NCBI RefSeq assembly: GCF_988243305.1
Contig: NZ_OZ547136.1
Direction: 5' to 3' (one strand)
DNA: 64,000 nucleotides
Below are positions 1,926 to 53,730 of this stretch, in pieces (within the stretch, counting starts at the first letter, position 1; each line of letters begins with the position of its first letter). The notes below the pieces were generated by a model. That model did not search any database, was not told the DNA's origin, and saw only the letters and a program-made list of their open reading frames with translations. Position numbers and translations under genes: made by a program.

Positions 1926-2001
<76 letters not shown>

Positions 2002-2158
2002 AAATTTGAAAAGTGCTGCAAAGCACAGACCACCCAATCGCAGTATTTCGAATTGCGACAAGGCGGCAACTGAACGAATCCTTGGGAGCTTACAAAAGTA
2101 AGTGACTAAGGTGAGTGAAGGCAGCCAAGGCAGTAGCGGTTCGAAAAACGAAGATTAA

Positions 2159-2234
<76 letters not shown>

Positions 2235-2269
2235 AAATTTGAAAGTGCTATAAAGCACAGACCACCCAA

Positions 2270-2345
<76 letters not shown>

Positions 2346-39473: not shown

Positions 39474-40544
39474 TTATTTAATCCGGGCCATCGCGCTTCT
39501 CAGTGCCAAATCTGCCTCTTCCGTTATCTCCAGACTTTTCTGCAACACCGTTTCTGACCGGGACAGTGCCTGACGTGCTGCCAGCGGTTTCCGGATATGC
39601 TCCATCGTCAGCATCGTGTCCTCGTAGCCCTGCTGACGCCAGGCGTCGGTATGTGCCGACGTGAAACTGAGCAGACCGCCACTGTTGCCACCATCACCTG
39701 CATATTTCAGCCTTTTCCGGGGACGGATCTCAAGGATTGTGGTGTCCGGAAAAGCCTGGCGATCCCATAAAGAACCGTCACTCAGATGCGACACAATCAC
39801 CATATTGCATCCGGCATCGACCAGAGGCGTTACAGGGGTATTTCCCTGCATATTTCGCCATCCTCCCATACCACCATCACCGAACATTGTCCCCTGAACC
39901 TCACGGGGACGGAACAACAGGGGCAGTGCGGCTGACGCAAGCAGAGCCTCTTTCTGCTGTCCGCGGGGCAGACTCTGGATATGCTGAAAAACGGCGTTTT
40001 TCGTGGTTCCGGAACCCAGTTCAGCACGAATGCAGTCAATAATATCCTGCATGCCCCCTTCTGTGGGGTACAGCGACACATACAGCGGTAGCCCGTCTGC
40101 CAGAGCATCTGTATCAAGATAATGATCCATCAGCGCTGTCAGGGGCCCATCTGACAACAACGGCTGAGTCATCGGATTGTCGAAGCCGTTGATTATCGAT
40201 ATATGGCGAAGAAGTGTCGTAAGCAGTGCTCCTGCACGTCCGGGGATCTGGCAGAGGTTCATTGCCTGGAACAATTTTTTCAGCAATGAAAAGTAAACCG
40301 ATCGGTTTACCGACAGCACCTGATTATTCCCAAGATGATCCCAGAGCGCCTCCAGGCGTACGGCAGCTTCTGACAGATCGGGAGAGGCCGCGATAATGGC
40401 ACCATTGAATGCGCCAATGCTGGCCCCTGAAACCATGCTGATCTGTGTACCACACTCTGCCAGTGCCTTAACCACTCCCGCCTGATAAGCGCCCACCGCC
40501 CCACCGCCGGACAGCACCAGCCCTGTTTTTATTTCTATACTCAT
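39474..40544 (-). CDS. Patatin-like phospholipase
   Basis: 356 aa; oxyanion motif SGGGAVGAYQAG, nucleophile GASIG (GxSxG), catalytic Asp in FGDGG; ATG overlaps stop of upstream gene (ATGA). Confidence 0.85.
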   Translation of the reverse strand: MSIEIKTGLVLSGGGAVGAYQAGVVKALAECGTQISMVSGASIGAFNGAIIAASPDLSEAAVRLEALWDHLGNNQVLSVNRSVYFSLLKKLFQAMNLCQIPGRAGALLTTLLRHISIINGFDNPMTQPLLSDGPLTALMDHYLDTDALADGLPLYVSLYPTEGGMQDIIDCIRAELGSGTTKNAVFQHIQSLPRGQQKEALLASAALPLLFRPREVQGTMFGDGGMGGWRNMQGNTPVTPLVDAGCNMVIVSHLSDGSLWDRQAFPDTTILEIRPRKRLKYAGDGGNSGGLLSFTSAHTDAWRQQGYEDTMLTMEHIRKPLAARQALSRSETVLQKSLEITEEADLALRSAMARIK

Positions 40545-41446
40545 GCAGCCCCCTTCTGAAATATTTCATCGACCATACTTTCAGAGAGGCGTTCTGCAGA
40601 GCAGAGACGGGGCATGCGAACCGGTAAGTGTTCTGCAGCCTGCGTGGTTGACCAGATCACCGGATGCTGCTCTTCACTGCACCAGTCCCCCAGCCAGTTA
40701 ATCGCGTCATGCCACTCGTTATCTGCCTGCTCCCGGCCCTGACCACCAAGCCAGTCCAGAGTGTTCAGACGCACGGTTGCACTACCGCCACTCTCCTGTG
40801 CCATCTGCGTTAATGCTTTATGTCTGAGAATATCCAGTAGCTGGTTAACCTGGCCTGTTTCGCCCTGACGTATCACATCACCAAACGCGCCCCAGCGAAG
40901 CTCTTCAAGTGCCACATAACAACGTCCGGCAGGGGAAAATGACGCATATCGCCCGGCGCTCCACCAGGAGAATATCTGCTCAAGATGTAACTGCGCCCGC
41001 TGAACCAGGTCAACACGGTGGAGTTTTTCTTCAAGATGATTCAGTTTCTGGTGAACCTGATCGGCCAGGGTGAGTAACTGCTCCCGCGTATCTGCGGAAT
41101 AATGCGCCAGCCTGGCAGTATCACTGACCAGTGAACTGACCCTGTCGTTTACCCGGGTAATCGCGTAGTTTGTGGTGGCAAGTGACGTTGTCAGCTCCGT
41201 CAGCCAGCGCAGGGACGCCTCAACGCCCTGTGCAAGCGAAGCATTGATGGCATTCTGCCGTGCAGCACCTTCGCCGCTCAGCCCCTCTTTTAACCGCCGG
41301 AAGAACGTGCGCTCTCCGGCCGTACGGATATGCTCCTGTGCAACATCAATACCGTTTGCGAAATCAACCACAAATTTTTCAGGAAGACAGGTGAGTACCT
41401 GACATACCCGGTTATCAGCAATTTGTTGAATAAATGGTGAAGTCAC
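40541..41446 (-). CDS. YjcZ-like protein (partner of dynamin-like GTPase)
   Basis: 301-aa ORF; GTG start overlaps dynamin stop; family call from memory of chromosomal crfC-yjcZ pair. Confidence 0.65.
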   Translation of the reverse strand: MTSPFIQQIADNRVCQVLTCLPEKFVVDFANGIDVAQEHIRTAGERTFFRRLKEGLSGEGAARQNAINASLAQGVEASLRWLTELTTSLATTNYAITRVNDRVSSLVSDTARLAHYSADTREQLLTLADQVHQKLNHLEEKLHRVDLVQRAQLHLEQIFSWWSAGRYASFSPAGRCYVALEELRWGAFGDVIRQGETGQVNQLLDILRHKALTQMAQESGGSATVRLNTLDWLGGQGREQADNEWHDAINWLGDWCSEEQHPVIWSTTQAAEHLPVRMPRLCSAERLSESMVDEIFQKGAA

Positions 41447-43827
41447 AGCATTGTCTCCAGTTCTTCCCTTAACGCCTTACTGTCAGTAATGAGCTCAGGA
41501 ACCCTTTCATTTAACGCCTGAAGACGCCCGGTCAGCCGTTCCTGCGCCTGCTGATCGCGTTTATGATCTTCAGAGCTCTGAATCAGCGTGTTACGCAGCT
41601 GTTCAACTTTCTCCCTGAATGTACAGAAAAAGGCATCGATTTCCTGGCGGACGGGCTGGTTAATATCCTGCTCAATGGATGCCTGCAGCTCCCCGAAATA
41701 TGCCCGGGTCAGTGACATCACTTCCTCTCTGACCTTGTTGATATTGATCACGCTGCGGCTCACATCCACACTGTACTCTTTCCAGCCCCAGTCACTGGTG
41801 TTTGCCCATCGACAAAGCGTACCCCAGACACCATCCTGTCGACAGCGACGGGTTACTGTCTCCGTTCTTTCCTCCATAAGCGCGCTCAGATTTGTTTTTA
41901 CTGCGAGCCGGGTCTGTAACTGGCTGACTGCCGGAAAACTGATTTTTACAGTGAAACCTTCATCCTCCAGACGGGCATTGATGCGTCCGGCAATATTTTC
42001 TGTGGCGTACAGGGCCGTACCACGAAAACCTGTTTCAATACCCCTGACGATTTTTTCCAGTTCAGGACGGAACTGTGCTTCAGCCTCACGGTGCAGGCTG
42101 GTCACGGTCGATTCGATTTGCGTCATCAGTTCAAGGGCTTCCCTGCGATCACTGAATTTTATTTCGGGGCTGTCCGGATCAAAGTCCCGCATCCTGTCAT
42201 GCTGATTTCCGGTTCCGAAAATATCGTGAAAGAAAGCGAATGCGTTTCTCTCCCGGGGCTGCGCTGAATTTTCTTCCTCCAGCATTTGCTGTTCTTTGCG
42301 TTTACCGCTTCTGAAATAGTCATTCAGCTCCTCTTCCAGTGAGGTGCAGACCCCCGTCAGTAATTCCCGGGTTCTGGCATCGATCTCCTCCATGGCCATT
42401 CTGACATCAGCGGTCACCTGCTCCTGACAGTCCGCGATTTCCCGGATATCCGCAAGCAGGCTGGTGATATGCGACTGCAGTGACTGAATGCTTTGCTGTA
42501 GCCCCTGATGGCGTAATGACAGATATTCGCTGACATTTTCCGCATTCTGCATCAGTTTTGCGGCGGCAGAATCAACCGCCAGTGCCGCCGCTCTGGAATG
42601 GGAGCTCTGTATGACTTCCGTTATCAGTTGATCGATAAGTGAGCCTTCCCACAGGTCTGTCGCCCCTTCGGTTGCCATTTCACTGTCTTTACAGACGTAT
42701 TCTTTTTTCATGCGACCGAAGGCTTCCCTGACAAAATCATCGACCCAGGCTTCATCAACAGGAAGGGTTCTGTTTTTCCGTAACTCATGAAGCGCACGGT
42801 TAGCCAGGTACGCCTGACGTGATGAGCCTGGATAAACGCGGGAGGCGGGCAGCACATCGCTGTTCAGCATTGCCGGAACTTTCTGGCGTACGGCATCTGC
42901 CCCATCGCCATTGCGGTCTTTCTCATCAAATTTATTGACCAGCACAAACAGGCGGCCAGCTGATACGTCAGCAATGGCATTAAGCTCTTTACGGACGTCT
43001 TCATCCGCTTTTGAGTTCATCTGGGTGTAATCCATCACCGCCAGCACCGCAGAGGCTTTCTGCAGTTGATCCCGCATCATCACTTCCATCTGCGGTTGTC
43101 CGGCCTCATTAGGGCCGGGGGTATCCAGCAGTGTGAGTGTTCCCTGGCATGGATCCATCCCCACCAGATGGCTGAATTCCACGTCGATCACCGGCAGTTT
43201 CTGCACTTCTGCGTATTCATCAAAAGGAAACTCACTCCCCATTGCCGCAGCAAGGCGAACCAGATCGTTTAACGATGCCAGTCCGGTAAAAATTTCCTCC
43301 TCCCCGTGGTATTCATTTTTGAGCCAGCCATCATTTGCCAGAATATCCAGCAGTTCGCAGGTATCCCCGGTTTGCTGCAGGGTCTGTGCGACTTGCTGTC
43401 CTGCCGGGGTGTCGAGTTTTTGTTTCAGTGTGCTTAATAAATTGCGGACGGGCTGAATATGTTCCAGATGGAGGACCGGCTCAGTTTTTCCGGGAACGTG
43501 GCGGATGAGCGTCGGTACAGAGGTCATGGGGCGGTTACGGTTAGGCAGAATTTCCTGCCCCACAATGGCGTTGATGGTGGTTGATTTACCTGCTTTCATC
43601 GTGCCGACAACAGCCAGCACCATCTCCCTGCGGGCGGTTTTGATTTGTTCGCCCTCCAGCTCCTCAATTCTTTTCAGTGCTTTCTGTTTATCAAAAAGCA
43701 GTCTGTTTTCGTTCTTACTGTCAGATAACACATCCGGCTCATCAACCATTTGCCGGAGCAGATTAATGTTCAGTTGCAAAAGTCGGTCGGCTTCATCACA
43801 AAGCAGGGCGATGTTCTTTTCGTGCAT
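41443..43827 (-). CDS. Bacterial dynamin-like GTPase (CrfC/YjdA- and LeoA-like)
   Basis: 794 aa; G1 GTMKAGKST, G3 DTPGPNE, G4 NKFD; long helical C-terminal region; RBS AGGAAGG upstream of ATG 43827. Confidence 0.85.
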   Translation of the reverse strand: MHEKNIALLCDEADRLLQLNINLLRQMVDEPDVLSDSKNENRLLFDKQKALKRIEELEGEQIKTARREMVLAVVGTMKAGKSTTINAIVGQEILPNRNRPMTSVPTLIRHVPGKTEPVLHLEHIQPVRNLLSTLKQKLDTPAGQQVAQTLQQTGDTCELLDILANDGWLKNEYHGEEEIFTGLASLNDLVRLAAAMGSEFPFDEYAEVQKLPVIDVEFSHLVGMDPCQGTLTLLDTPGPNEAGQPQMEVMMRDQLQKASAVLAVMDYTQMNSKADEDVRKELNAIADVSAGRLFVLVNKFDEKDRNGDGADAVRQKVPAMLNSDVLPASRVYPGSSRQAYLANRALHELRKNRTLPVDEAWVDDFVREAFGRMKKEYVCKDSEMATEGATDLWEGSLIDQLITEVIQSSHSRAAALAVDSAAAKLMQNAENVSEYLSLRHQGLQQSIQSLQSHITSLLADIREIADCQEQVTADVRMAMEEIDARTRELLTGVCTSLEEELNDYFRSGKRKEQQMLEEENSAQPRERNAFAFFHDIFGTGNQHDRMRDFDPDSPEIKFSDRREALELMTQIESTVTSLHREAEAQFRPELEKIVRGIETGFRGTALYATENIAGRINARLEDEGFTVKISFPAVSQLQTRLAVKTNLSALMEERTETVTRRCRQDGVWGTLCRWANTSDWGWKEYSVDVSRSVININKVREEVMSLTRAYFGELQASIEQDINQPVRQEIDAFFCTFREKVEQLRNTLIQSSEDHKRDQQAQERLTGRLQALNERVPELITDSKALREELETML

Positions 43828-44026: not shown

Positions 44027-44899
44027 TCAGAAGAAAATCCAGTTCCATACCGCGCGGGCAACAGAGACCACCGAGTCACGGACGGCTCGCAGAACCGTAC
44101 GAGCCACAGAGGCAACACAGACGCTCTCCGCTGTGTCAAATATCCGGTCCACCGCACCGGTAAACTGTTCACGGGCCTGAGAGCGGACAGACTCCGTGCG
44201 CAGTTCGTCCTGCAGGCGGGTCATCAGGGGGCTGGCGGCATGGTCGGGAAGCGCTGTCATGAGCGCACTGACCAGCGTATCCAGTTCCCAGCCGGTGCAG
44301 GCCGATACGGCCACAACCGGATGTACGGGCCGGAACAGCCGGAATACCGCCTCCGTTTTCTCACGAATGTTCTGTGCCTGTGCGGGAGAAGGCTGAATGC
44401 CGGCCATATCCCATTCATGGCAGGGCTCCGTTTTGTCGGCCTGCGTCACCACAAACAGCACCTGCTGATGTCCCCGGTGCAGGATGTGTCGCCAGAAATA
44501 CTCATCCACAGACAGGGCACGGTCATCGGCTTTAATCAGCCACAGTACCAGGTCAAGTTCAGGCAGAATGTCACGGTACAGGGCTTCATACTCTGCATCC
44601 CTGTCCCGGCTCTCGCCCACCCCGGGCAGGTCAGTGATAATCATGCTGTGACCGTGGCCACTCAGACGGAAGCGCCGCACTTCCCGGGTGCCGGCGTGAA
44701 CATCACTGACCGGGGTGACCTCCCCCTGAAACAGCGCATTACAGAGTGAGGATTTACCGGCCCCGCTTTTACCCATAATGCCAATCACGGGTTCGTGACT
44801 GGTGAGTTTGCGCAGATGTTCCTGGATGTGACGGGAAAGTGAGTAAGGCAGGGAGGAGAGCGGTTTTTCAATTGCCTCAATGGCATCAGACGGATTCAT
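44027..44899 (-). CDS. YfjP/YeeP/YkfA-family GTPase of CP4-like islands
   Basis: ATG 44899 (MNPSDAIEAIEKPLSS...); P-loop GIMGKSGAGKSS, DLPG; possible upstream GTG start at 44962. Confidence 0.8.
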   Translation of the reverse strand: MNPSDAIEAIEKPLSSLPYSLSRHIQEHLRKLTSHEPVIGIMGKSGAGKSSLCNALFQGEVTPVSDVHAGTREVRRFRLSGHGHSMIITDLPGVGESRDRDAEYEALYRDILPELDLVLWLIKADDRALSVDEYFWRHILHRGHQQVLFVVTQADKTEPCHEWDMAGIQPSPAQAQNIREKTEAVFRLFRPVHPVVAVSACTGWELDTLVSALMTALPDHAASPLMTRLQDELRTESVRSQAREQFTGAVDRIFDTAESVCVASVARTVLRAVRDSVVSVARAVWNWIFF

Positions 44900-44983: not shown

Positions 44984-45901
44984 TTATCTGGAATGTCGGT
45001 ACCTTTTATACTCTTCAACAATCAGGTCATGCAGCATTTCGCCGGTACTGAGTCTTCTGACCCTCGATAATTCTTTGAGCTGCGCCCTGGTTTCTGCGTC
45101 AAGAAAAAACTGTACATTGACTTTATCTTCCTGCATTTTTTTGTACTTGCGCTGCGCCTTGGCCTTATTGAAACTGTTTCTGAAATTTTTTATATCGTCA
45201 GGTGAGGTGAGTGTACAGGTAACCCATATGTCAAATGAAAGGTGAATTGCGTGGTAAATATCAGCAGAACCAGGAAAACTGGCCAGTTTTTCCAGTGCAA
45301 TATTTTTTCCCTTCAAATAATTCCATGTCCATATGCATTCATGTTCGTTCTCCGGGAGGAGGTAACTGAAAGGACTCTTTGATTTAAATGCCCGTATCCA
45401 TCTGTCTTTGGTCTGGATTATCCACTCATCCCGCAAATTCTTATCAGAAAGAATATCGAGAACTCTGAGTATTTGTCTGAACTGTGTCGATGAGTCCGAC
45501 GGGAAGGCATTCCCTTCTAAATACTCTTCTTTAAGATACAGTTTATTCTTTTGAAGCAAGTCTGCACTTATTTTTGCCCTGTTATTCTGGATAAACTGCA
45601 TCAACAGATACCAGGAAAATAAGCATGCGCGTTCACTGCCCGCGATCCAGGATATTTTTTCCAGGGGGACCAGGAAGGCCTGGGCCTTCAGACGCATACC
45701 AGAAATGATTTGTTCAAGTTCAAAATCTGAAAGTGTGATGTTCAGATTTTCTCTGTTTTTTTTTATGTAAGCGATAAAACGTTCCGGGGGATCATAAACA
45801 TTAAGGGGCAGTACGGAGATATTACGCTCTCCAAGATAATAAGAGTAATACGCATTTGTTCTTTCATTCATAACCTTATCCGACAAAATTTTCTGAACCA
45901 T
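44984..45901 (-). CDS. AT-rich hypothetical protein with C-terminal ribbon-helix-helix-like segment
   Basis: 305-aa ORF; RBS GGAGAAAGGGG; C-terminus VQFFLDAETRAQLKELSRVRRLSTGEMLHDLIVEEYKRY resembles an RHH DNA-binding fold; base composition visibly lower in GC than neighbours. Confidence 0.7.
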   Translation of the reverse strand: MVQKILSDKVMNERTNAYYSYYLGERNISVLPLNVYDPPERFIAYIKKNRENLNITLSDFELEQIISGMRLKAQAFLVPLEKISWIAGSERACLFSWYLLMQFIQNNRAKISADLLQKNKLYLKEEYLEGNAFPSDSSTQFRQILRVLDILSDKNLRDEWIIQTKDRWIRAFKSKSPFSYLLPENEHECIWTWNYLKGKNIALEKLASFPGSADIYHAIHLSFDIWVTCTLTSPDDIKNFRNSFNKAKAQRKYKKMQEDKVNVQFFLDAETRAQLKELSRVRRLSTGEMLHDLIVEEYKRYRHSR

Positions 45902-47101
45902 CCCCTTTCTCCGGTTGCTTAAAAATTAAACACAACAAGGTGATAATAACATGATAAAAAGAAGTTTATAATGGTATATTAAGGTGGTCAATAAAAAGGC
46001 AATCTGCGCACTGTATAGTCATTATGACAGGAAATGCAGGAGGAAGGGAAGGTAACCGGCTTCGTTATGCTGACAGGAATACCTGTTATCATGGAAGTGC
46101 ATTCATGTGGCCGACGTAGCTTAAGAGGATGGAAGAGTGGAGACTGCAGACAGGGGGTATTGAAAGGTAAACATGTTTCGCCCGCCAGCTGCACCGGAGG
46201 CCAGCATCACTTTTTTTACGTTGTAACCTGGTATGCATTCCGGCTTTGATGATTACAGTCAGAGGGCAGCAGACTGACGTTATTTAACCGGACAGCAAAA
46301 TTATGGACACTGAAATATCGTCCGTTAATACCTCGTTTGTCGGTGTGGTATTCCCTGTATTACCGGCGTCACCGATAAAGAGAGTTATAAACGCCAGAAA
46401 GGTACCTGCTTTATGCCGGGGAACACTTATGGAAAATGAAGTCTGAAAAGGAGCACAATGAAAAGAGACGTGTCCCGTAAATATAACGAATCATCGCAGG
46501 ATATGCATTATCAGGTGATACCAGAGTGCATTAAACTGCCGTCACGGATAAGAATATACAACATTTCTGATAACAAAACATCATAACGTGTTTCAGATAT
46601 GTTCCGGCATCAGTCTGACGGATATTATTTCCCGGGAAAACAAACCTGCTACTGTGACGGTTAACTGTATCTGCATAAATTATTTATGATGAAAGAACAG
46701 TATTACGGATTCAAATATCATCCTGTTTGCATTCAGGCGGACATTCCCGGATGCCGAAAAGAATATCCTGCAGGCTGAGTGAGTCTCTTCCACAGTGCCG
46801 GGATCGCTGTCGCCACGTACATATTGTCACCAGGATGGGTATGTACCGCAGCATGCCATTTCTGGTGAATAACCGCACCTGCACATTCAGTCTGCTGAGA
46901 ACCTGGCGTGCATCGGGCTGTAAAGAACATCCCTGTCCGTGGCTCCTCTGGTGGTGTTGCCTGCTCAGTAATGACAGGATGCCCTTAAGACGCCCGTCAT
47001 GGCTCAGTATGATGACGACGAACACGCTCTGCAGGTGAGCATGCGGGGCCGGGAGCATCATCATTTCCGTATTTTGTCACACCTTCCGGAAGCAACCGGC
47101 A

Positions 47102-47719
47102 TCAGTTGCGGTTATCGTCAACCGTTGTGCGGTATGCCAGGAGCACGTACTGATCCATCAGATCCGTCAGTGCTGCGCTCTGCCTCTGACGGTTGATGAT
47201 CCATTCCTCCAGCTCTTTTTCTGATTTCCGTTTCAGGTTCTCTTTCCAGTCTTCAAGGCTGTTTCCGGTCATTAAATCAAGCCAGCAAAGCCAGACCAGT
47301 TTGAGGCGCAACTCCGTGCCACCAAACTGACGGAAGAGGCTAATCAGTTTATTTGCCAGAGAACGCTGCCTCAGACGTTCACATTCAGACAGGAGAATGC
47401 CTTCCAGCATCGGATGATGAACCAGCAGATGTTCACTGGTGCATAAATTCACTATCAGATCATCATCCAGGGGCGGCGTGGCCCGTTTGTCAGGGCCATA
47501 AATCAGCCGGTGCAGGCTCTGGGGTACGATGGCAATCTCCGGTTTTTCACCATTGAATGACACCCACCCGGGCGTCAGATTATGGAAGTAGTAGATATTC
47601 GGATGACACACGCCCCAGGATACGGCGTGCCGGGTGAAGCCGGTCAGCCATTTCTGGTAGCTTTCGTGGAGCAGTTCGTAACGGGTCTGATACTGTTGTT
47701 TCATTTTCATATTCCTCAC
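47102..47719 (-). CDS. Hypothetical protein (205 aa) downstream of alpA-like gene
   Basis: Uninterrupted ORF; no family recognised from sequence alone. Confidence 0.6.
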   Translation of the reverse strand: MRNMKMKQQYQTRYELLHESYQKWLTGFTRHAVSWGVCHPNIYYFHNLTPGWVSFNGEKPEIAIVPQSLHRLIYGPDKRATPPLDDDLIVNLCTSEHLLVHHPMLEGILLSECERLRQRSLANKLISLFRQFGGTELRLKLVWLCWLDLMTGNSLEDWKENLKRKSEKELEEWIINRQRQSAALTDLMDQYVLLAYRTTVDDNRN

Positions 47720-47798
47720 GGGGATATAACAGGCAGCAGAATGCCGCCGGCAGGCCGGGGATTACGTCTGCTGCGGGTGAACGGATAACGGTCAGAAA

Positions 47799-48005
47799 TT
47801 ACGGACGGGACTGTGCAATACGCGCCTGCAGCCAGGCTTCCACTTCACTTTTCAGCCATCGGGAACTGCGGCCCAGCTTGATGGGGGCCGGAAAGGCCCC
47901 ATCCCTGATGAGTTTGTAAAACCACTTATCGGTCAGGCCAGTCAGTTGAGTGATAAACGCCATGTCGACCATCTGGTCATCCATCAGTGAAACTGGGGTG
48001 GTCAT
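47799..48005 (-). CDS. AlpA-family prophage transcriptional regulator (excisionase-like HTH)
   Basis: 68-aa form from ATG 48005 after RBS GGAGG; MTTPVSLMDDQMVDMAFITQLTGLTDKWFYKLIRDGAFPAPIKLGRSSRWLKSEVEAWL. Confidence 0.8.
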   Translation of the reverse strand: MTTPVSLMDDQMVDMAFITQLTGLTDKWFYKLIRDGAFPAPIKLGRSSRWLKSEVEAWLQARIAQSRP

Positions 48006-48911
48006 GAGAATGTTCCTCCGGATGTTGTTAATCTCAACCGGCGTTGGTGATGAAAACAACGCACCACCTTCACCGGCATAACAACCGGGGAGAAACGTAA
48101 AAAATAATCGGGAATGTGACCGCCAGGAGATAAACGGGGGGATTGCGGTGGCTGAGCCGTACCGGTATGTCGGGTGGTTGTTGCGAAACGATGCTTCCGC
48201 ACGCGATAAAGGAGGGAGGACTTTCGTGAGACAAGGGGAAAACTAGCGTTCTGATAATTGCAGAGTTGTTTTTGAAGGCGGTTGTGGTATATCAGCCTGT
48301 GACCTGTGGGCAGGCGACAGTTATCACTGGTGGGATAATACTGTCTGATTGGTATTATAAATATATAAGAGAGATCAAACACATGAGATCAAACACATGA
48401 GTTCATATATGTGAAATAAATCTGTGAGTGTGATCAGCAGACCAGTCTACCCAGTAGCAACAGATTGCGTTGTACTCACAGGGTTATCCCTGATAACTGG
48501 CGTATAACCTGCGTACATAAAACGTACCTGCAATGCACCTGAACAGAGTGCATTAAGCATCCGCCTGAGCGGTAAACGTATCCGATCTGGTGAGTGACAG
48601 TCTGAGAGCATTCTCAGTAATCGCCCCCTTGTATCCTGGAAATTGGTTAAGATAACAGCGATTAGATTTGGCAAGGTGTATGCAGCCAGCAGCTTAACAT
48701 CTCAGCTAACTGGCTGGTTACCTTCAGGTTGTCGCAATGGCATCGGACATCCGGTGTCGGATAACTAAACGTAGCGTTAAGGCGATATTGCTGAGAGACC
48801 GGTTAAGTGGTTGCACGGGAGTAATGAGTTTGGGGAGGGCACCAGAATGCCAGGTTGGTGCGGTATGCTGACAGCATCCTGTTAACCGCAGCATAAAGTA
48901 ATGAGAGGCTA

Positions 48912-49124
48912 ATGGAAGTTAAAACCAAAGAAGACTGGCTGTATCAGCTCCGTCGTTGTTCATCCCGGGAGACACTGGAAAAAGTGATTTCCCACACACG
49001 TTATAAACTTACCCCTGCGGAGCTGGAAGCCTTCAACTCTGCGGTCGATCACCGGCTGGCAGAACTGACAATGAACAAGCTTTACGATCGCGTGCCGGCT
49101 TCAGTCTGGAAATATGTCATCTGA
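48912..49124 (+). CDS. Small hypothetical protein (70 aa)
   Basis: ORF with upstream GAGAGG; no family recognised. Confidence 0.4.
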
Positions 49125-49756
49125 GCGTTCGGTAATCACAACGGCATCGCGCCAGGTGTTATCCGCTTTGTGATTCTTATTGGCTCTTCTCAGGTTATTA
49201 AAAGCTGAATATGTTCCTGTTGTCGGGAACCAGGATAATGTCGGGAACGTTAAGCTGTATAACGACAACAAAGAATTCGAAATCAAAAGGGAATGGTGTA
49301 CGGAGGTGTGGACGGTAATGGGCCGATTTTCGGGCATTACCGACCTCTGCTGAGGTTTTCTCGTATTTCTGGGGATCCGGTGAGTTACTGTCACTGTCTG
49401 GCACAGCAAGCGCAGAGGCGGCGGGGCGCTTTGCTCCGCTGATTCCGGATAATTCCTCCCCTGTAACCTACCGCAACAGTACAAATACACTGACGCCTGA
49501 AACGACAGCCAGAATCAGCACAAGCCACAATCCCTGCACACCGTTTTGCGTATCACCATAACGCCTCCTCACAGCCTTACCCGTAACCGGTTTTTTACAT
49601 TAAAAAAACAACGCTGGGAATTCAATCGTCAGTCCGGAGACGACAGTCGGGTTATCACAGAGTGCCTGAGACAGTGTCCTGCCGGAGGTCACCTCAGGGA
49701 CTCTGCACATTTTTTACAGCGTGGCTATTCCGTATGAACCATACGGAGATTTAACC

Positions 49757-50326
49757 ATGACCTACAAATACAACCCCTTCTGGCAGCAACGTATTCGTGA
49801 GACGGTGCGGCACGCACTGAATGTTCATCCCCGCCTGACGGCATTGCGGGTTGACCTGCGTCTCCCGGATGTACCGGCAGCAACGGACGCAGCTGTGATA
49901 TCCCGCTTCATCAATGCCCTGAAAGCCCGAATCGACGCTTACCAGAAACGTAAGCATCGGGAAGGTAAACGCGTGCATCCCACAACCCTGCATTACGTCT
50001 GGGCCCGGGAGTTTGGGGAGTGCAAAGGTAAAAAACACTATCACCTGCTGCTGCTGGTCAACCGGGATACCTGGTGTCGTGCCGGTGATTACCGCGCTCC
50101 GGGGTCACTGGCCGGGATGATTAAACAGGCCTGGTGCAGTGCCCTGGGAGTGGATGCCGGACGTTATGACACGCTGGCACATTTTCCGGTCAGGCCGGCG
50201 GTGTGGCTGGAACGCGATGATGACACCGGCTTTCAGCAGGTGCTGGAGCGTGCTGACTATCTGGCGAAGGAGAGTACCAAAGCTTACGGCACCGGTGAGC
50301 GCAACTTTGGCTGCAGTCGTGGCTGA
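49757..50326 (+). CDS. YagK/YfjJ-family (inovirus Gp2-like) protein
   Basis: ATG 49757 after RBS GGAGAT (MTYKYNPFWQQRIRETVRHALN...); family typical of CP4-like islands. Confidence 0.7.
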   Translation: MTYKYNPFWQQRIRETVRHALNVHPRLTALRVDLRLPDVPAATDAAVISRFINALKARIDAYQKRKHREGKRVHPTTLHYVWAREFGECKGKKHYHLLLLVNRDTWCRAGDYRAPGSLAGMIKQAWCSALGVDAGRYDTLAHFPVRPAVWLERDDDTGFQQVLERADYLAKESTKAYGTGERNFGCSRG

Positions 50327-50491
50327 GCCCGACAGACGACTTATCTGACTTCAGTGTGATGACGTGTTCACAGCGACCACACTGATTTTCCCTTCTGAGA
50401 CTGAACTGAAAACCGCCATTCACACCTGACCACGCTGCCCGTACCGGGACGGCTGTTGCCTGCGTGTCGTCTGGCGGTAAGGAACCACACT

Positions 50492-50911
50492 ATGTACGCA
50501 AAATCTTTTCTCGCACTTGATGGCAACGGACGTCTGACCGGTGCCCGTACCGCACAGACCGCACCTTATGCTTACTACACCTGCCACCTTTGCGGCAGTG
50601 CACTCAGATACCACCCGCAGCACGACACGGAACGTCCCTGGTTTGAACACACTGACGACGGGCTGACGGAGCACGCGCAGCAATGTCCTTATGTCAGGCC
50701 GGAACGCAGAGAAATACGGTTGATTAAACGTCTGCAGCAATTCGTCCCGGATGCCTTACCCGTGGTACGTAAAGCCAGCTGGTACTGCAGGCAATGTCAC
50801 CACGATTATTATGGGGAGCAGTACTGCACACACTGCCAGACCGGGCGCTTCAGTGAGGACGGGGAGCAGAATGAACGGTATAAAAACGGGGCTGGGGATC
50901 ACGCCGGGTGA
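50492..50911 (+). CDS. Cys/His-rich zinc-ribbon protein, first half of a tandem pair (second half 50871..51179 in another frame)
   Basis: ATG 50492 after RBS AAGGAA; CHLCGSALRYH...WFEHTD repeated as CLSCHGRLIL...WFEHDL in the downstream frame; C-terminus runs into the IS66 end. Confidence 0.55.
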   Translation: MYAKSFLALDGNGRLTGARTAQTAPYAYYTCHLCGSALRYHPQHDTERPWFEHTDDGLTEHAQQCPYVRPERREIRLIKRLQQFVPDALPVVRKASWYCRQCHHDYYGEQYCTHCQTGRFSEDGEQNERYKNGAGDHAG

Positions 50912-51094: not shown

Positions 51095-52633
51095 TTATTC
51101 AGTCGGCAGTGCTACGCGCCAGGGGAGCAGTTCGCCGACCCGGTTTATCGGCCAGTCGGCTATGACGTCAAGGACATAGCGGAGGTAGCTTTCTGGCTCC
51201 ACTCCGTTCAGTTTGCACGTCCCGATCAGGCTGTACAGCAGCGCTCCCCGCTCTCCTCCATGATCCGAACCGAAGAACAGGTAGTTTTTGCGGCCCAGAC
51301 TGACCATCCGCAACGCATTTTCAGCGATGTTATTGTCCGCCTCAGCCCAGCCATCATCTGCATAGTACGTCAGCGCCGGCCACTGGTTCAGGGCGTATGC
51401 GAACGCTTTCGCCAGTTCTGAGTGTCGCGACAGGGTTTTCATCTTTTCACGCAGCCAGCTTTCCAGGGATTTCAGCAGCGGTTTCGTTTTCAACTGACGT
51501 TCGGCAAGGCGCTGTTCCGCCGTCATTCCCCTTATCTCTGCCTCGATGGCGTACAGTTCGCCGATCCGTTTCAGCGCTTCCTCCGTCAGGGCTGACGGGG
51601 TGCGAACGTGCACATCGTGGATTTTACGGCGGGCGTGAGCCCAACAGGCGGCTTCCGTTATCCGGCCATCCCGGTACAGCTCGTTGAACCCGGCGTATGC
51701 ATCCGCCTGCAGTACACCACTGAACCCCGCAAGATGGGTCTGCGGATGGATGCCTTTTCTGTCCGGGCTGTAAGCGAACCACACCGCCGGCGCCAGCGTT
51801 GACCCGGCGTTACGGTCGTCACGAACATACGCCCACAACCGCTCGGTCTTCGTTTTCTTATTGCCTGGCAACAGCACCGGGACAGGCGTGTCATCAACAT
51901 GGAGCTTACCGTCAGTCAGCACATAGCCATGAAGCGCCTCTTCCAGCGGAGACAGCTGCCGGCAGCATGCATCCACCCAGCCCGACAGCAGTGAACGGCT
52001 CAGCTCCACACCTTGCCGGCCGTATATTTCTGACTGGCGATACAGCGGGGTGTGCTCTGCATACTTCGAGGTCAGCACGCGGGCCAGCAGCCCCGGTCCG
52101 GCGATACCCCGCTCGATGGGCCGCGAAGGTGCAGGTGCCTGCACGATGGCATCGCACTGAGTACAGGCATGTTTTTCCCGTACCGTCCGGATAACCCGGA
52201 AGGCGCTACGCATCAACTCCAGCTGTTCGGCGATATCCTCGCCCAGATAGCTCAGTGAACCGCCGCAGTTCGGGCAGCACGGCGCCGCAGGCAACAGTCG
52301 CTTTTCGTCACGGGGTAGTGATTCAGGGAACGGCTTACGGGTGCGGGTCTGACGCAACGGACGCTGTACTGCCGGGTCATACACCCTACCAGTCAGCGTA
52401 TCGCTCTCTTTCTGAAGCCGGTTCAGATCGGCTTCCATTTGTGCGATACGGCGGGAGACTTTTTCGGAACGACTGCCGAAGTTCATCCGGCGGAGTTTAT
52501 CCAGCTGCGCCTGCAGATGGTCTATTTCGCGCTCCCGGTTGCTCAGCTTTTCCTGCAGGGCGTGGATCAGCGCTTCCTGTTCGGCCAGGCGCTGTTTCAG
52601 CAGGAAAATGTCGTCAGAAGAGATGTCGTTCAT
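51095..52633 (-). CDS. IS66-family transposase TnpC (full length)
   Basis: About 512 aa from [14 protein letters not shown]... (ORF extends to 52669); CxxC zinc motifs and DDE region. Confidence 0.85.
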
Positions 52634-53730
52634 ACATCGTGTATTTTTCGCCGGGCATGGACCCAGCACGCAACTTCTGTCTGTGCACCACCTTCACGTT
52701 TGGCACTGAACAGCCGATCGTAACCGCTGAATGCATCCGCCTGCAGGATACCCCGGAAGGGACGAAGGTGTTGTACCGGATGTTTTCCCTGCCTGTCTGG
52801 TGAGTAGGCGAACCAGACCGCCGGTGGCTCTGATGAGCCCGCATTCCGGTCATCCCGGACATACGTCCAGATGCGTCCTGTTTTTGCCTTTTTTCTGCCC
52901 GGTGTCAGCACTTTTACCGGTGTGTCGTCAGTGTGAACCTTGCGGGTGTTCATCACGTAACGGTACAGGGCATCATTCAGCGGAGTCATTAACTGGCAGC
53001 ACGCGTCAACCCAGTTGGAGATTAATGCACGGCTCAGTTCGGCACCCTGTCGGGCAAAGATTTCACTCTGACGATACAGTGGCAGGTGTTCGCAGTATTT
53101 TCCCGTTAACACGCGGGCAAGTAATCCGGAGCCCGCGATGCCGCGCGCTATCGGGCGGGACGGCGCTGGCGCTTCAACTATACAGTCACATTTTGTACAG
53201 GCTTTTTTTACCCGAACAGTGCGGATCACTTTCAGGGCGCTACTCACCAGTTCCAGCTGCTCAGCACTGACTTCACCCAGATAATCCAGCTCACTGCCAC
53301 ACTCCGGGCAACAACTTTCTTCAGGCTCCAGGCGGTGTATTTCACGGGGAAGATGTGCTGGTAACGGACGACGATGACGTGACTGTCGCAACTGGCGGGG
53401 AACCTGCGGGTCATCCTCACGCCCACTGTAACGATCGCTTTCCTGTTCGCGTTGTTTCAGTTGGGCCTCAGCCTGTTCAACCTCACGCTGCAGTTTTTCA
53501 GAACGGGTACCGAACAGCATCCGGCGCAGTTTTTCTATCTGGGCCCTCAGATATTCTATTTCCCGCTCCTCCTCTTCGATCTTTTCTTCGGCACGTGCCA
53601 GTGCAGAGCGCAGGAAGGCCTCCGTCTCTTCAACCAGACTCAGTTGCAGATCTCTCTGACGGAGGGCTTCAGCCTGCTCAGAGAGCAGCCTTTCCAGCTC
53701 AGTGATACGAATGAGGTATTTCCGACTCAT
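52630..53730 (-). CDS. IS66-family transposase TnpC, C-terminally truncated copy
   Basis: 366 aa [19 protein letters not shown]... ending at the conserved ARRKIHDV motif. Confidence 0.8.

Follow-up and report, generated by a model that had tools for sequence, protein, structure and literature searches.

AlpA-family proteins are excisionase-like helix-turn-helix factors that serve as activators or excisionases (PMC6092414), and genomic islands that carry them are the closest described counterparts of the locus presented here. In EcCICFT073 and other phage-inducible chromosomal islands (PICIs) of E. coli, AlpA auto-activates an operon, which leads to expression of island genes, including replication functions, and to excision and replication of the island (PMC6092414). 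In ROD21, the AlpA-like SEN1998 acts as a recombination directionality factor (RDF) and binds att regions (PMC8844411), and the Pseudomonas tmRNA islands I23, I44 and I55, which are transduced by a jumbo phage, share a core of tyrosine integrase, AlpA, inovirus Gp2-like protein and RadC and carry variable defence cargo, with neither conjugation nor packaging genes (PMC12595487). Defence islands have been described as having "unclear mechanisms of mobilization" (Hochhauser et al., PMC10121019). Here, we examined a stretch of 64,000 nucleotides (nt; hereafter, the window) of contig NZ_OZ547136.1 from NCBI RefSeq assembly GCF_988243305.1, which holds an island of the CP4-57/CP4-44 type (an earlier note on this DNA had spoken of CP4-57-type islands), and within it the gene for a protein of 200 amino acids (aa), labelled X200 in our analysis. 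We show that 1) X200 is a genuine gene under purifying selection, and 2) it is the constant partner of its alpA subfamily.

The K-12 island CP4-57 presents the same order of alpA, one gene and a YagK/YfjJ (Gp2-like) gene (i.e., alpA-yfjI-yfjJ), followed by the defence cargo abpAB and rnlAB and, after it, by the backbone known from our island, of YfjP GTPase, DUF932, antirestriction, RadC-like and DUF987 genes and a CbtA/CbeA-type pair. It differs in its middle gene, YfjI (DUF3987, 469 aa), and in a gene order and orientation unlike those of the window. An X200 profile searched against all CP4-57 open reading frames (ORFs; hmmsearch --max) gave as its best match an unrelated short ORF (E = 0.68) and no homology to YfjI. 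X200 shares the position of YfjI, with alpA, X200 and a Rep-like gene in this order in 18 of the loci examined, but the analogy is positional only, and the middle gene of the AlpA module here is a non-homologous orphan. A comparison by eye suggests that K-12 AlpA is only a distant relative of the AlpA encoded here, at roughly 30% identity.

The likeness to the EcCICFT073 PICI lies in the position of X200, which comes first after an AlpA-type gene and has a Rep-like gene for a neighbour. PICIs differ in having a pri-rep primase/helicase and packaging-redirection genes, whereas in the island here the Rep-like gene is of the Gp2/HUH type, the backbone is of the YeeP-CbtA kind and packaging genes are absent, and X200 has no PHROG or phage homologue. 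I23, I44 and I55 belong to another bacterial order, and an exhaustive profile search gave no X200 homologue outside Enterobacterales. P4 Vis, SEN1998 and similar proteins are relatives of the neighbouring alpA that bind att or regulatory DNA and modulate excision (PMC8844411, PMC6092414); none of these systems has been reported to require a 200-aa helical co-factor. SEN1998, which we considered as a relative of X200, was rejected, as it is an AlpA-like RDF instead. Overall, the island type and its AlpA/Rep-like module are already known, and the X200 family is undescribed and has no Pfam or NCBIfam model. No mention of the X200 accession WP_000813435 was found in the literature, and no description of X200 was found in the literature searched on alpA/yeeP/defence, YfjJ/YagK, RDF and pathogenicity island excision, the she pathogenicity island rox, or CP4-57 hotspots.

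We examined the linkage of X200 to alpA in a locus set comprising 28 loci from one-genome-per-species contigs together with the loci of distant X200 members, relatives of the window genes being located by tBLASTn. In 25 of the 28 loci, X200 is directly preceded on its own strand by an AlpA-type gene, 60-81% identical to that of the window, at a spacing of 71-103 nt (94 nt in the window, on the same strand, in agreement with the earlier note, which had placed X200 immediately downstream of alpA). In L038 and L040 the two are separated by a single Zn-ribbon gene, and L026 is cut by the end of its contig; alpA is upstream of X200 in 27 of the 28. The earlier note had suggested that X200 may be one of the variable genes that follow alpA in such islands and that include defence or helicase-like functions. 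X200 instead adjoins alpA in the 25 loci and shares its operon in the two others, the variable region starts after it, and it has no PADLOC match and no NTPase, nuclease or helicase motif. The features of the window on which the following text draws are:

44027-44899, minus strand: GTPase of the YeeP/YfjP type (Pfam MMR_HSR1; PGAP 'GTPase family protein'), with which the conserved backbone begins
44984-45901, minus strand: AT-rich gene for a 305-aa protein (AT305; G+C content 40.5%), of a backbone family tied to the GTPase
47102-47704, minus strand: X200, 200 aa (from the ORF list, the RefSeq/PGAP range and the conserved MK start)
47717-47713, minus strand: Shine-Dalgarno element GAGGA of X200, read from the sequence, 8 nt ahead of the ATG at 47704
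47733-47774, minus strand: conserved hairpin in the alpA-X200 spacer (from folding, an alignment of 18 spacers and RNAalifold; listed by a terminator scan)
47799-48005, minus strand: alpA-type gene, 68 aa, AlpA/excisionase-family helix-turn-helix (Pfam PF05930 Phage_AlpA, E = 1.4e-8; PGAP WP_000211312.1)
49721-50326, plus strand: Rep-like gene of the YagK/YfjJ ('inovirus Gp2 family') type (Pfam PF11726, E = 1.2e-47, and PF23343), divergent from alpA in the window
50456-50911, plus strand: DUF7828/Zn_ribbon_11 gene (Pfam) following the Rep-like gene

The maximal X200 frame runs unbroken on the minus strand from a GTG at 47719 to the stop at 47102 (205 codons). The uninterrupted ORF of the earlier note therefore stands, but its length of 205 aa counts from a GTG that overlaps the Shine-Dalgarno element. 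Because the ATG at 47704 lies 8 nt past this element, is where RefSeq/PGAP begins the gene in identical islands (WP_000813435.1, 603 nt, 'hypothetical protein') and aligns with the conserved 'MK' N-terminus of the homologues, the gene most likely spans 47102-47704 and encodes 200 aa; an alternative start at ATG 47710 (202 aa) is possible. A homologous AAGGAAT element is kept ahead of the start codon in other genera. The balanced composition remarked on earlier holds (X200 51.7% G+C, window 50.4%), as does the AT-richness of the downstream 305-aa gene (40.5%). Opposite the 3' end of X200, in antisense, RefSeq also annotates a 'hypothetical protein' of 65 aa (WP_001333284.1; 46999-47196, plus strand). 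It carries a frameshift in strain BR1220, and the annotation is probably spurious.

Ten pairwise comparisons by the Nei-Gojobori method, within and between clades, gave ratios of nonsynonymous to synonymous substitution rates (dN/dS) of 0.07-0.15. Together with full-length homologues in about 20 genera, these values show that X200 is a real gene and not a chance frame. By blastn, 3455 of 5426 complete E. coli genomes contain it (median two copies, maximum six; 6140 E. coli copies in all), nearly always on the chromosome, and each of these records is named 'hypothetical protein'. Matches occur in only nine of 72,556 plasmid records, six of the nine being >800 kb and far beyond the usual plasmid size, and in a single one of 50,697 GenBank phage records, which is a 3.6-kb unannotated fragment. 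A word-indexed search of 5.8 billion proteins recovered 188 relatives, and an exhaustive hidden Markov model (HMM) search of 1.84 billion cluster representatives recovered 125, mostly fragments. A more diverse profile raised the number to 249, and all of the 120 listed are without a Pfam domain and either unnamed or 'hypothetical'. Named members and recovered loci belong to Enterobacterales, save two metagenome bins (Clostridiales, Bacillota), and the genera comprise Escherichia, Salmonella, Klebsiella, Enterobacter, Citrobacter, Kluyvera, Lelliottia, Hafnia, Serratia, Yersinia, Photorhabdus, Providencia, Pectobacterium, Brenneria, Dickeya, Mixta, Pantoea and others. Most full-length members have 191-202 aa, and distant ones as few as 174; in E. 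coli assemblies the gene is often truncated or pseudogenised.

The other recurrent partner is a Rep-like gene, which occurs in two types: one of ~225 aa belonging to YagK/YfjJ (PF11726), and one of ~190 aa that resembles REP_ORF2-G2P and bears an HxH motif ('HHYHAHVVFW'). One type or the other comes immediately after X200 in 18 loci, or immediately before alpA in about ten. Given this linkage of alpA and the Rep-like gene across loci, we regard the Gp2/YfjJ-like Rep gene, alpA and X200 as the conserved unit, after which DUF7828/Zn-ribbon genes often come. The set of Rep-like and DUF7828/Zn_ribbon_11 genes found in the window is present also in L001-L005, L020, L024, L038 and L045. In the window, a second DUF7828/Zn-ribbon copy is truncated by IS66 at ~51095, which leaves the Rep-side operon of this island disrupted. 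X200 also has distant paralogues (23-33% identity). In L003-L005 and L020 a paralogue ends a yfjJ-alpA-Zn-Zn-UCP030791 operon, L006 has a tandem second X200 after the first copy, and L029, L030 and L032 have truncated second copies directly downstream, which hints at a history of duplication and perhaps at hetero-oligomers.

Three further observations concern the surroundings of the module in the window. The IS66-family insertions are nested (51095-53730, minus strand), with one tnpC (524 aa) abutting or interrupting a second, truncated tnpC (366 aa). Between alpA and the Gp2-like gene stands an intact Hha-family gene (48912-49124, plus strand; 70 aa; NCBIfam Hha, 109 bits); it is called a partial pseudogene in related RefSeq genomes, apparently through a different choice of start codon. 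About 370 nt upstream of the alpA start codon there is a perfect tandem duplication of the 14-nt unit GAGATCAAACACAT (48371-48398), possibly a regulatory or recombination site, or a product of slippage.

X200 also marks the border with variable cargo. Between the window and divergent E. coli islands (L045, L046), a nucleotide similarity of 83-90% spans alpA and X200 and ends at ~47118, 16 nt before the X200 stop, which makes X200 the last conserved gene before the variable segment and points to a putative recombination breakpoint at its 3' end. The 1.2-kb unannotated spacer that follows and the AT-rich gene beyond it differ between E. coli islands. Searches of this gap (tBLASTn, with ORFs of at least 150 aa from other loci) revealed neither a Rep-like nor any other pseudogene. 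Systems of anti-phage defence are very frequent in the cargo beyond the module: L041 has BREX together with a GmrSD gene, L042-L044 and L032 have Dnd with associated genes, L006 has a type I restriction-modification system with an HNH protein, and L007-L010 have LlaJI/AAA_5. Across 24 loci, the 97 ORFs downstream of the module include 7-10 matches to type I methyltransferases, 5-6 to specificity subunits and 6-7 to MADS components. In the window, a three-gene operon downstream of the YeeP-type GTPase (39474-43827, minus strand) encodes a dynamin-family protein of 794 aa (CrfC-like at 560 bits, below the NCBIfam cut-off; weak PADLOC match to LeoBC, E = 1.9e-5), an RdcB-family protein of 301 aa and a patatin-like phospholipase of 356 aa. 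This operon has the look of island cargo and might encode a membrane-acting system of the defence type that is as yet undescribed.

The island backbone comprises the AT305 family, the YeeP-type GTPase, which is present in most related loci, WYL, YfjS, IrmA, DUF905 and DUF932 genes, antirestriction and RadC genes, CbeA/CbtA and DUF4942. X200 is co-oriented in the window with both alpA and the GTPase, as the earlier note had stated. Compared with other genera (L013-L042), E. coli-type islands (the window, L001, L002, L045 and L046) have the alpA-X200 pair inverted as one block with respect to the GTPase and the Rep-like gene; the pair points toward the AT-rich gene and the GTPase, divergent from hha-Gp2-Zn-Zn, whereas in the other genera the backbone lies on the other side of alpA and is transcribed divergently. 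That the pair moved as a unit argues that alpA-X200 is a self-contained transcription unit. Inverted repeats were considered as the cause of the inversion, and the best of them (18-19 nt, 78-79% match) were treated as chance. Far upstream of the island segment, the window carries three tandem tRNA-Gly(GCC) genes (1926-2345, plus strand).

Iterated HMM searches identified 30 ORFs of the AT305 family in the fetched loci, always beside the GTPase and on its strand, with lengths of 290-340 aa. AT305 is fast-evolving, with a weak Arc/ribbon-helix-helix-like C-terminus (phrog_582, E = 0.071) and no Pfam match, and YfjH of K-12 CP4-57 is not a detectable relative. Of the 22 non-redundant loci outside E. 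coli that carry AT305, 21 have it upstream of alpA and in divergent orientation to alpA-X200 (the exception being L040), whereas in E. coli-type islands it is co-directional with the pair. The co-occurrence of X200 with the AT-rich gene, which the earlier note had proposed to analyse, is therefore one of two backbone genes that are not operon partners, since their relative orientation is not conserved. The same note would have taken a clear match to a conserved backbone protein of known housekeeping role as its refutation; half of this applies, in that X200 belongs to the conserved backbone but matched no protein of known role.

The spacer between alpA and X200 contains a conserved hairpin. 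In the window, it consists of an outer stem (GCAGCAGA/TCTGCTGC) and an inner stem (CCGG/CCGG) with a degenerate T-tract; in other genera, a 5-bp G+C inner stem followed by TTTTCT sits inside a longer outer stem. Among 18 aligned spacers from many genera, 81.6% of the cells are paired, compared with at most 53% when the 3' partners are slid, and RNAalifold shows one inner pair with five compensatory cells (GC, CG, AU, UG). With its G+C stem and the T-tract in other genera, the hairpin resembles a terminator or attenuator. No known RNA turned up when 45800-49800 was scanned against Rfam, and the hairpin matches no family there. A consensus scan of the minus strand found no promoter-like site between alpA and X200, and listed one upstream of AT305 (45991-45963). 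We infer that X200 is co-transcribed with alpA, possibly subject to attenuation at the hairpin.

The absence of an assignable motif, noted earlier, was borne out at every level of search. The window protein matches no family at E <= 0.1 in Pfam-A, NCBIfam or PADLOC-DB, and no PHROG. Seventeen diverse members searched against Pfam at E <= 10 gave only four scattered single-member matches (E >= 0.019), none of them consistent, and a sequence profile search of the PDB returned only noise (E = 1.2). Single UniRef entries bear the names 'Malate transporter' and 'Secretoglobin family protein', but these labels stand alone, find no backing in any family or structure search made here, and were not used. 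As defined here, the X200 family comprises proteins of 174-202 aa with the motifs G-x-L-[LI]-S-E-C-x-R-L and L-C-W and an N-terminal Y-Q, encoded downstream of an AlpA-type gene in an island of the YeeP-GTPase/CbtA type. Nineteen columns are invariant across members down to 23% identity, including Y16-Q17, G31, P61, G102-x-L-x-S-E-C-x-R-L111, L139-C140-W141 and Y186. The window protein carries Y16, Q17, G102-L111, L139-C140-W141 and Y186, with alpA 94 nt upstream, and the closest relative of the window has the YeeP-type GTPase and then the DUF932/antirestriction/RadC/CbtA backbone downstream. An HH pair in 'HLLVHHPMLEG' is kept solely in the alpA-adjacent clade. The isoelectric point (pI) is 5.9-7.8, and inspection revealed no signal peptide, transmembrane segment, P-loop or helix-turn-helix.

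An AlphaFold2 model of the monomer, built from a 28-sequence alignment and of medium confidence, reached a predicted local distance difference test score (pLDDT) of 74.9 and a predicted template modelling score (pTM) of 0.75. In a second run, AlpA and X200 were joined by a linker (AlpA-(GGGGS)6-X200; 23-row paired alignment); both parts fold well, with a pLDDT of 85-94 over most of X200 and a pTM of 0.62 for the fusion. Both models have a long helix at the N-terminus, a beta-hairpin and, at the C-terminus, six or seven helices packed in a bundle, and residues ~70-90 form a variable loop that is poorly predicted in both. X200 is accordingly modelled as a soluble, near-neutral, mostly alpha-helical protein. 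Foldseek searches of the model against BFVD and PDB returned nothing below E = 0.5, and the predicted fold has no relative in these libraries; the profile and structure-based check suggested in the earlier note placed X200 in no known family.

Considering the strict linkage to AlpA and the Rep-like gene, the backbone status and the lack of an enzymatic or DNA-binding signature, we tentatively favour, at somewhat less than an even chance, the reading that X200 is a non-enzymatic, protein-binding subunit with an accessory or regulatory part in the induction programme that AlpA drives (excision, replication or mobilisation). The alpA promoter would drive X200 transcription by read-through of the spacer hairpin, and X200, taking the place that YfjI (DUF3987) holds between alpA and yfjJ of K-12 CP4-57, would work through protein-protein contacts in the AlpA-driven excision/replication switch of CP4-57/CP4-44-like islands. 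Co-transcription, non-enzymatic action and a role in excision or replication are all inferred. Several points weigh against this reading. A gene neighbourhood does not prove a common function, and excision and replication are themselves only putative for this island family. Neither an integrase nor a tRNA gene was seen beside the alpA module within the window, and IS66 elements disrupt the module there. The pTM of the AlpA fusion is about the value for two undocked domains, so that, judged by pTM, the run lends no support to an AlpA-X200 complex. Furthermore, the invariant S106-E107-C108-x-R110, together with C140, Y16, Q17 and Y186, could form a catalytic or ligand site, at variance with a non-enzymatic action, and the S-E-C-x-R helix and the second invariant cysteine leave room for a redox site as well. 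A more ambitious version, which we regard as quite unlikely, is that X200 founds a new-fold family acting under AlpA as the switch or sensor of common enterobacterial defence-carrying islands; through the S-E-C-x-R helix and the second invariant cysteine, it would couple induction (excision and Rep-driven replication or mobilisation) to a helper element, or it would promote cargo exchange at a hotspot at the X200 3' end.

Other roles for X200 have to be weighed against an accessory function in induction. Inhibitors and immunity proteins are often small helical bundles, and X200 might be an AlpA-controlled effector against invaders or the host, either in abortive infection or defence, or in an anti-defence role that shields the island on entry. 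The module adjoins defence cargo in many loci, the island backbone includes antirestriction and RadC-like genes, and helper phages induce AlpA in PICIs (PMC6092414). However, X200 matches nothing in PADLOC or PHROGs, is nearly absent from phages (1 of 50,697 records) and true plasmids, and is an invariant part of the backbone, whereas the defence genes of these islands are the variable part; the strong and uniform purifying selection likewise shows no arms-race diversification, and we hold an effector to be unlikely. We hold it equally unlikely that X200 is a regulator or insulator of the cargo, carrying AlpA-started transcription into AT-rich, H-NS-prone DNA by anti-silencing or anti-termination. 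Such a role would fit the terminator-like hairpin ahead of X200, the AT-rich DNA after it in the window, the hha-like gene that adjoins the module in E. coli-type islands, and the position of the cargo downstream on the alpA-X200(-Rep) strand in most genera other than E. coli. It is at odds with the near-neutral pI and the lack of a nucleic-acid-binding motif, with a Rep-like gene that usually stands between X200 and the cargo, and with the E. coli pair pointing toward the backbone rather than toward the Rep-like gene or the cargo past it.

We consider it very unlikely that alpA-X200 is an addiction pair of the toxin-antitoxin kind, in which the small helix-turn-helix protein neutralises or represses a toxic X200 and thereby stabilises the island. 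A two-gene operon with the small DNA-binding protein first, a pairing that survives rearrangements, and the frequent truncation or pseudogenisation of X200 in E. coli assemblies would all agree with it. Yet the spacer of ~95 nt (71-103 nt across loci) with its hairpin is unlike the overlapping or tightly coupled genes of type II systems, no toxin or antitoxin family was matched in Pfam, NCBIfam or PADLOC, CbtA/CbeA pairs are already present in the same islands, and AlpA-family proteins are known as activators or excisionases (PMC6092414). Finally, although every source calls X200 'hypothetical' and databases hold many fragments of it, a chance frame or decayed remnant is refuted by the dN/dS values and the kept length, by a start codon and Shine-Dalgarno element kept across about 20 genera, and by the 19 invariant columns; hardly any probability remains for it.

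If X200 were merely a structural helper of AlpA, the finding would be an ordinary one. The islands of its type are present in about two thirds of complete E. coli genomes, often in several copies, and bear adhesins, toxin-antitoxin pairs and many anti-phage systems. X200 is one of the very few constant genes in their AlpA/Rep-like control module, and it marks the boundary of the cargo slot. Being constant, without a known relative or fold, and placed at this boundary, X200 is a natural first target for studying the life cycle of these islands, and the alpA-X200(-Rep) module offers a practical sequence landmark for new defence cargo downstream.

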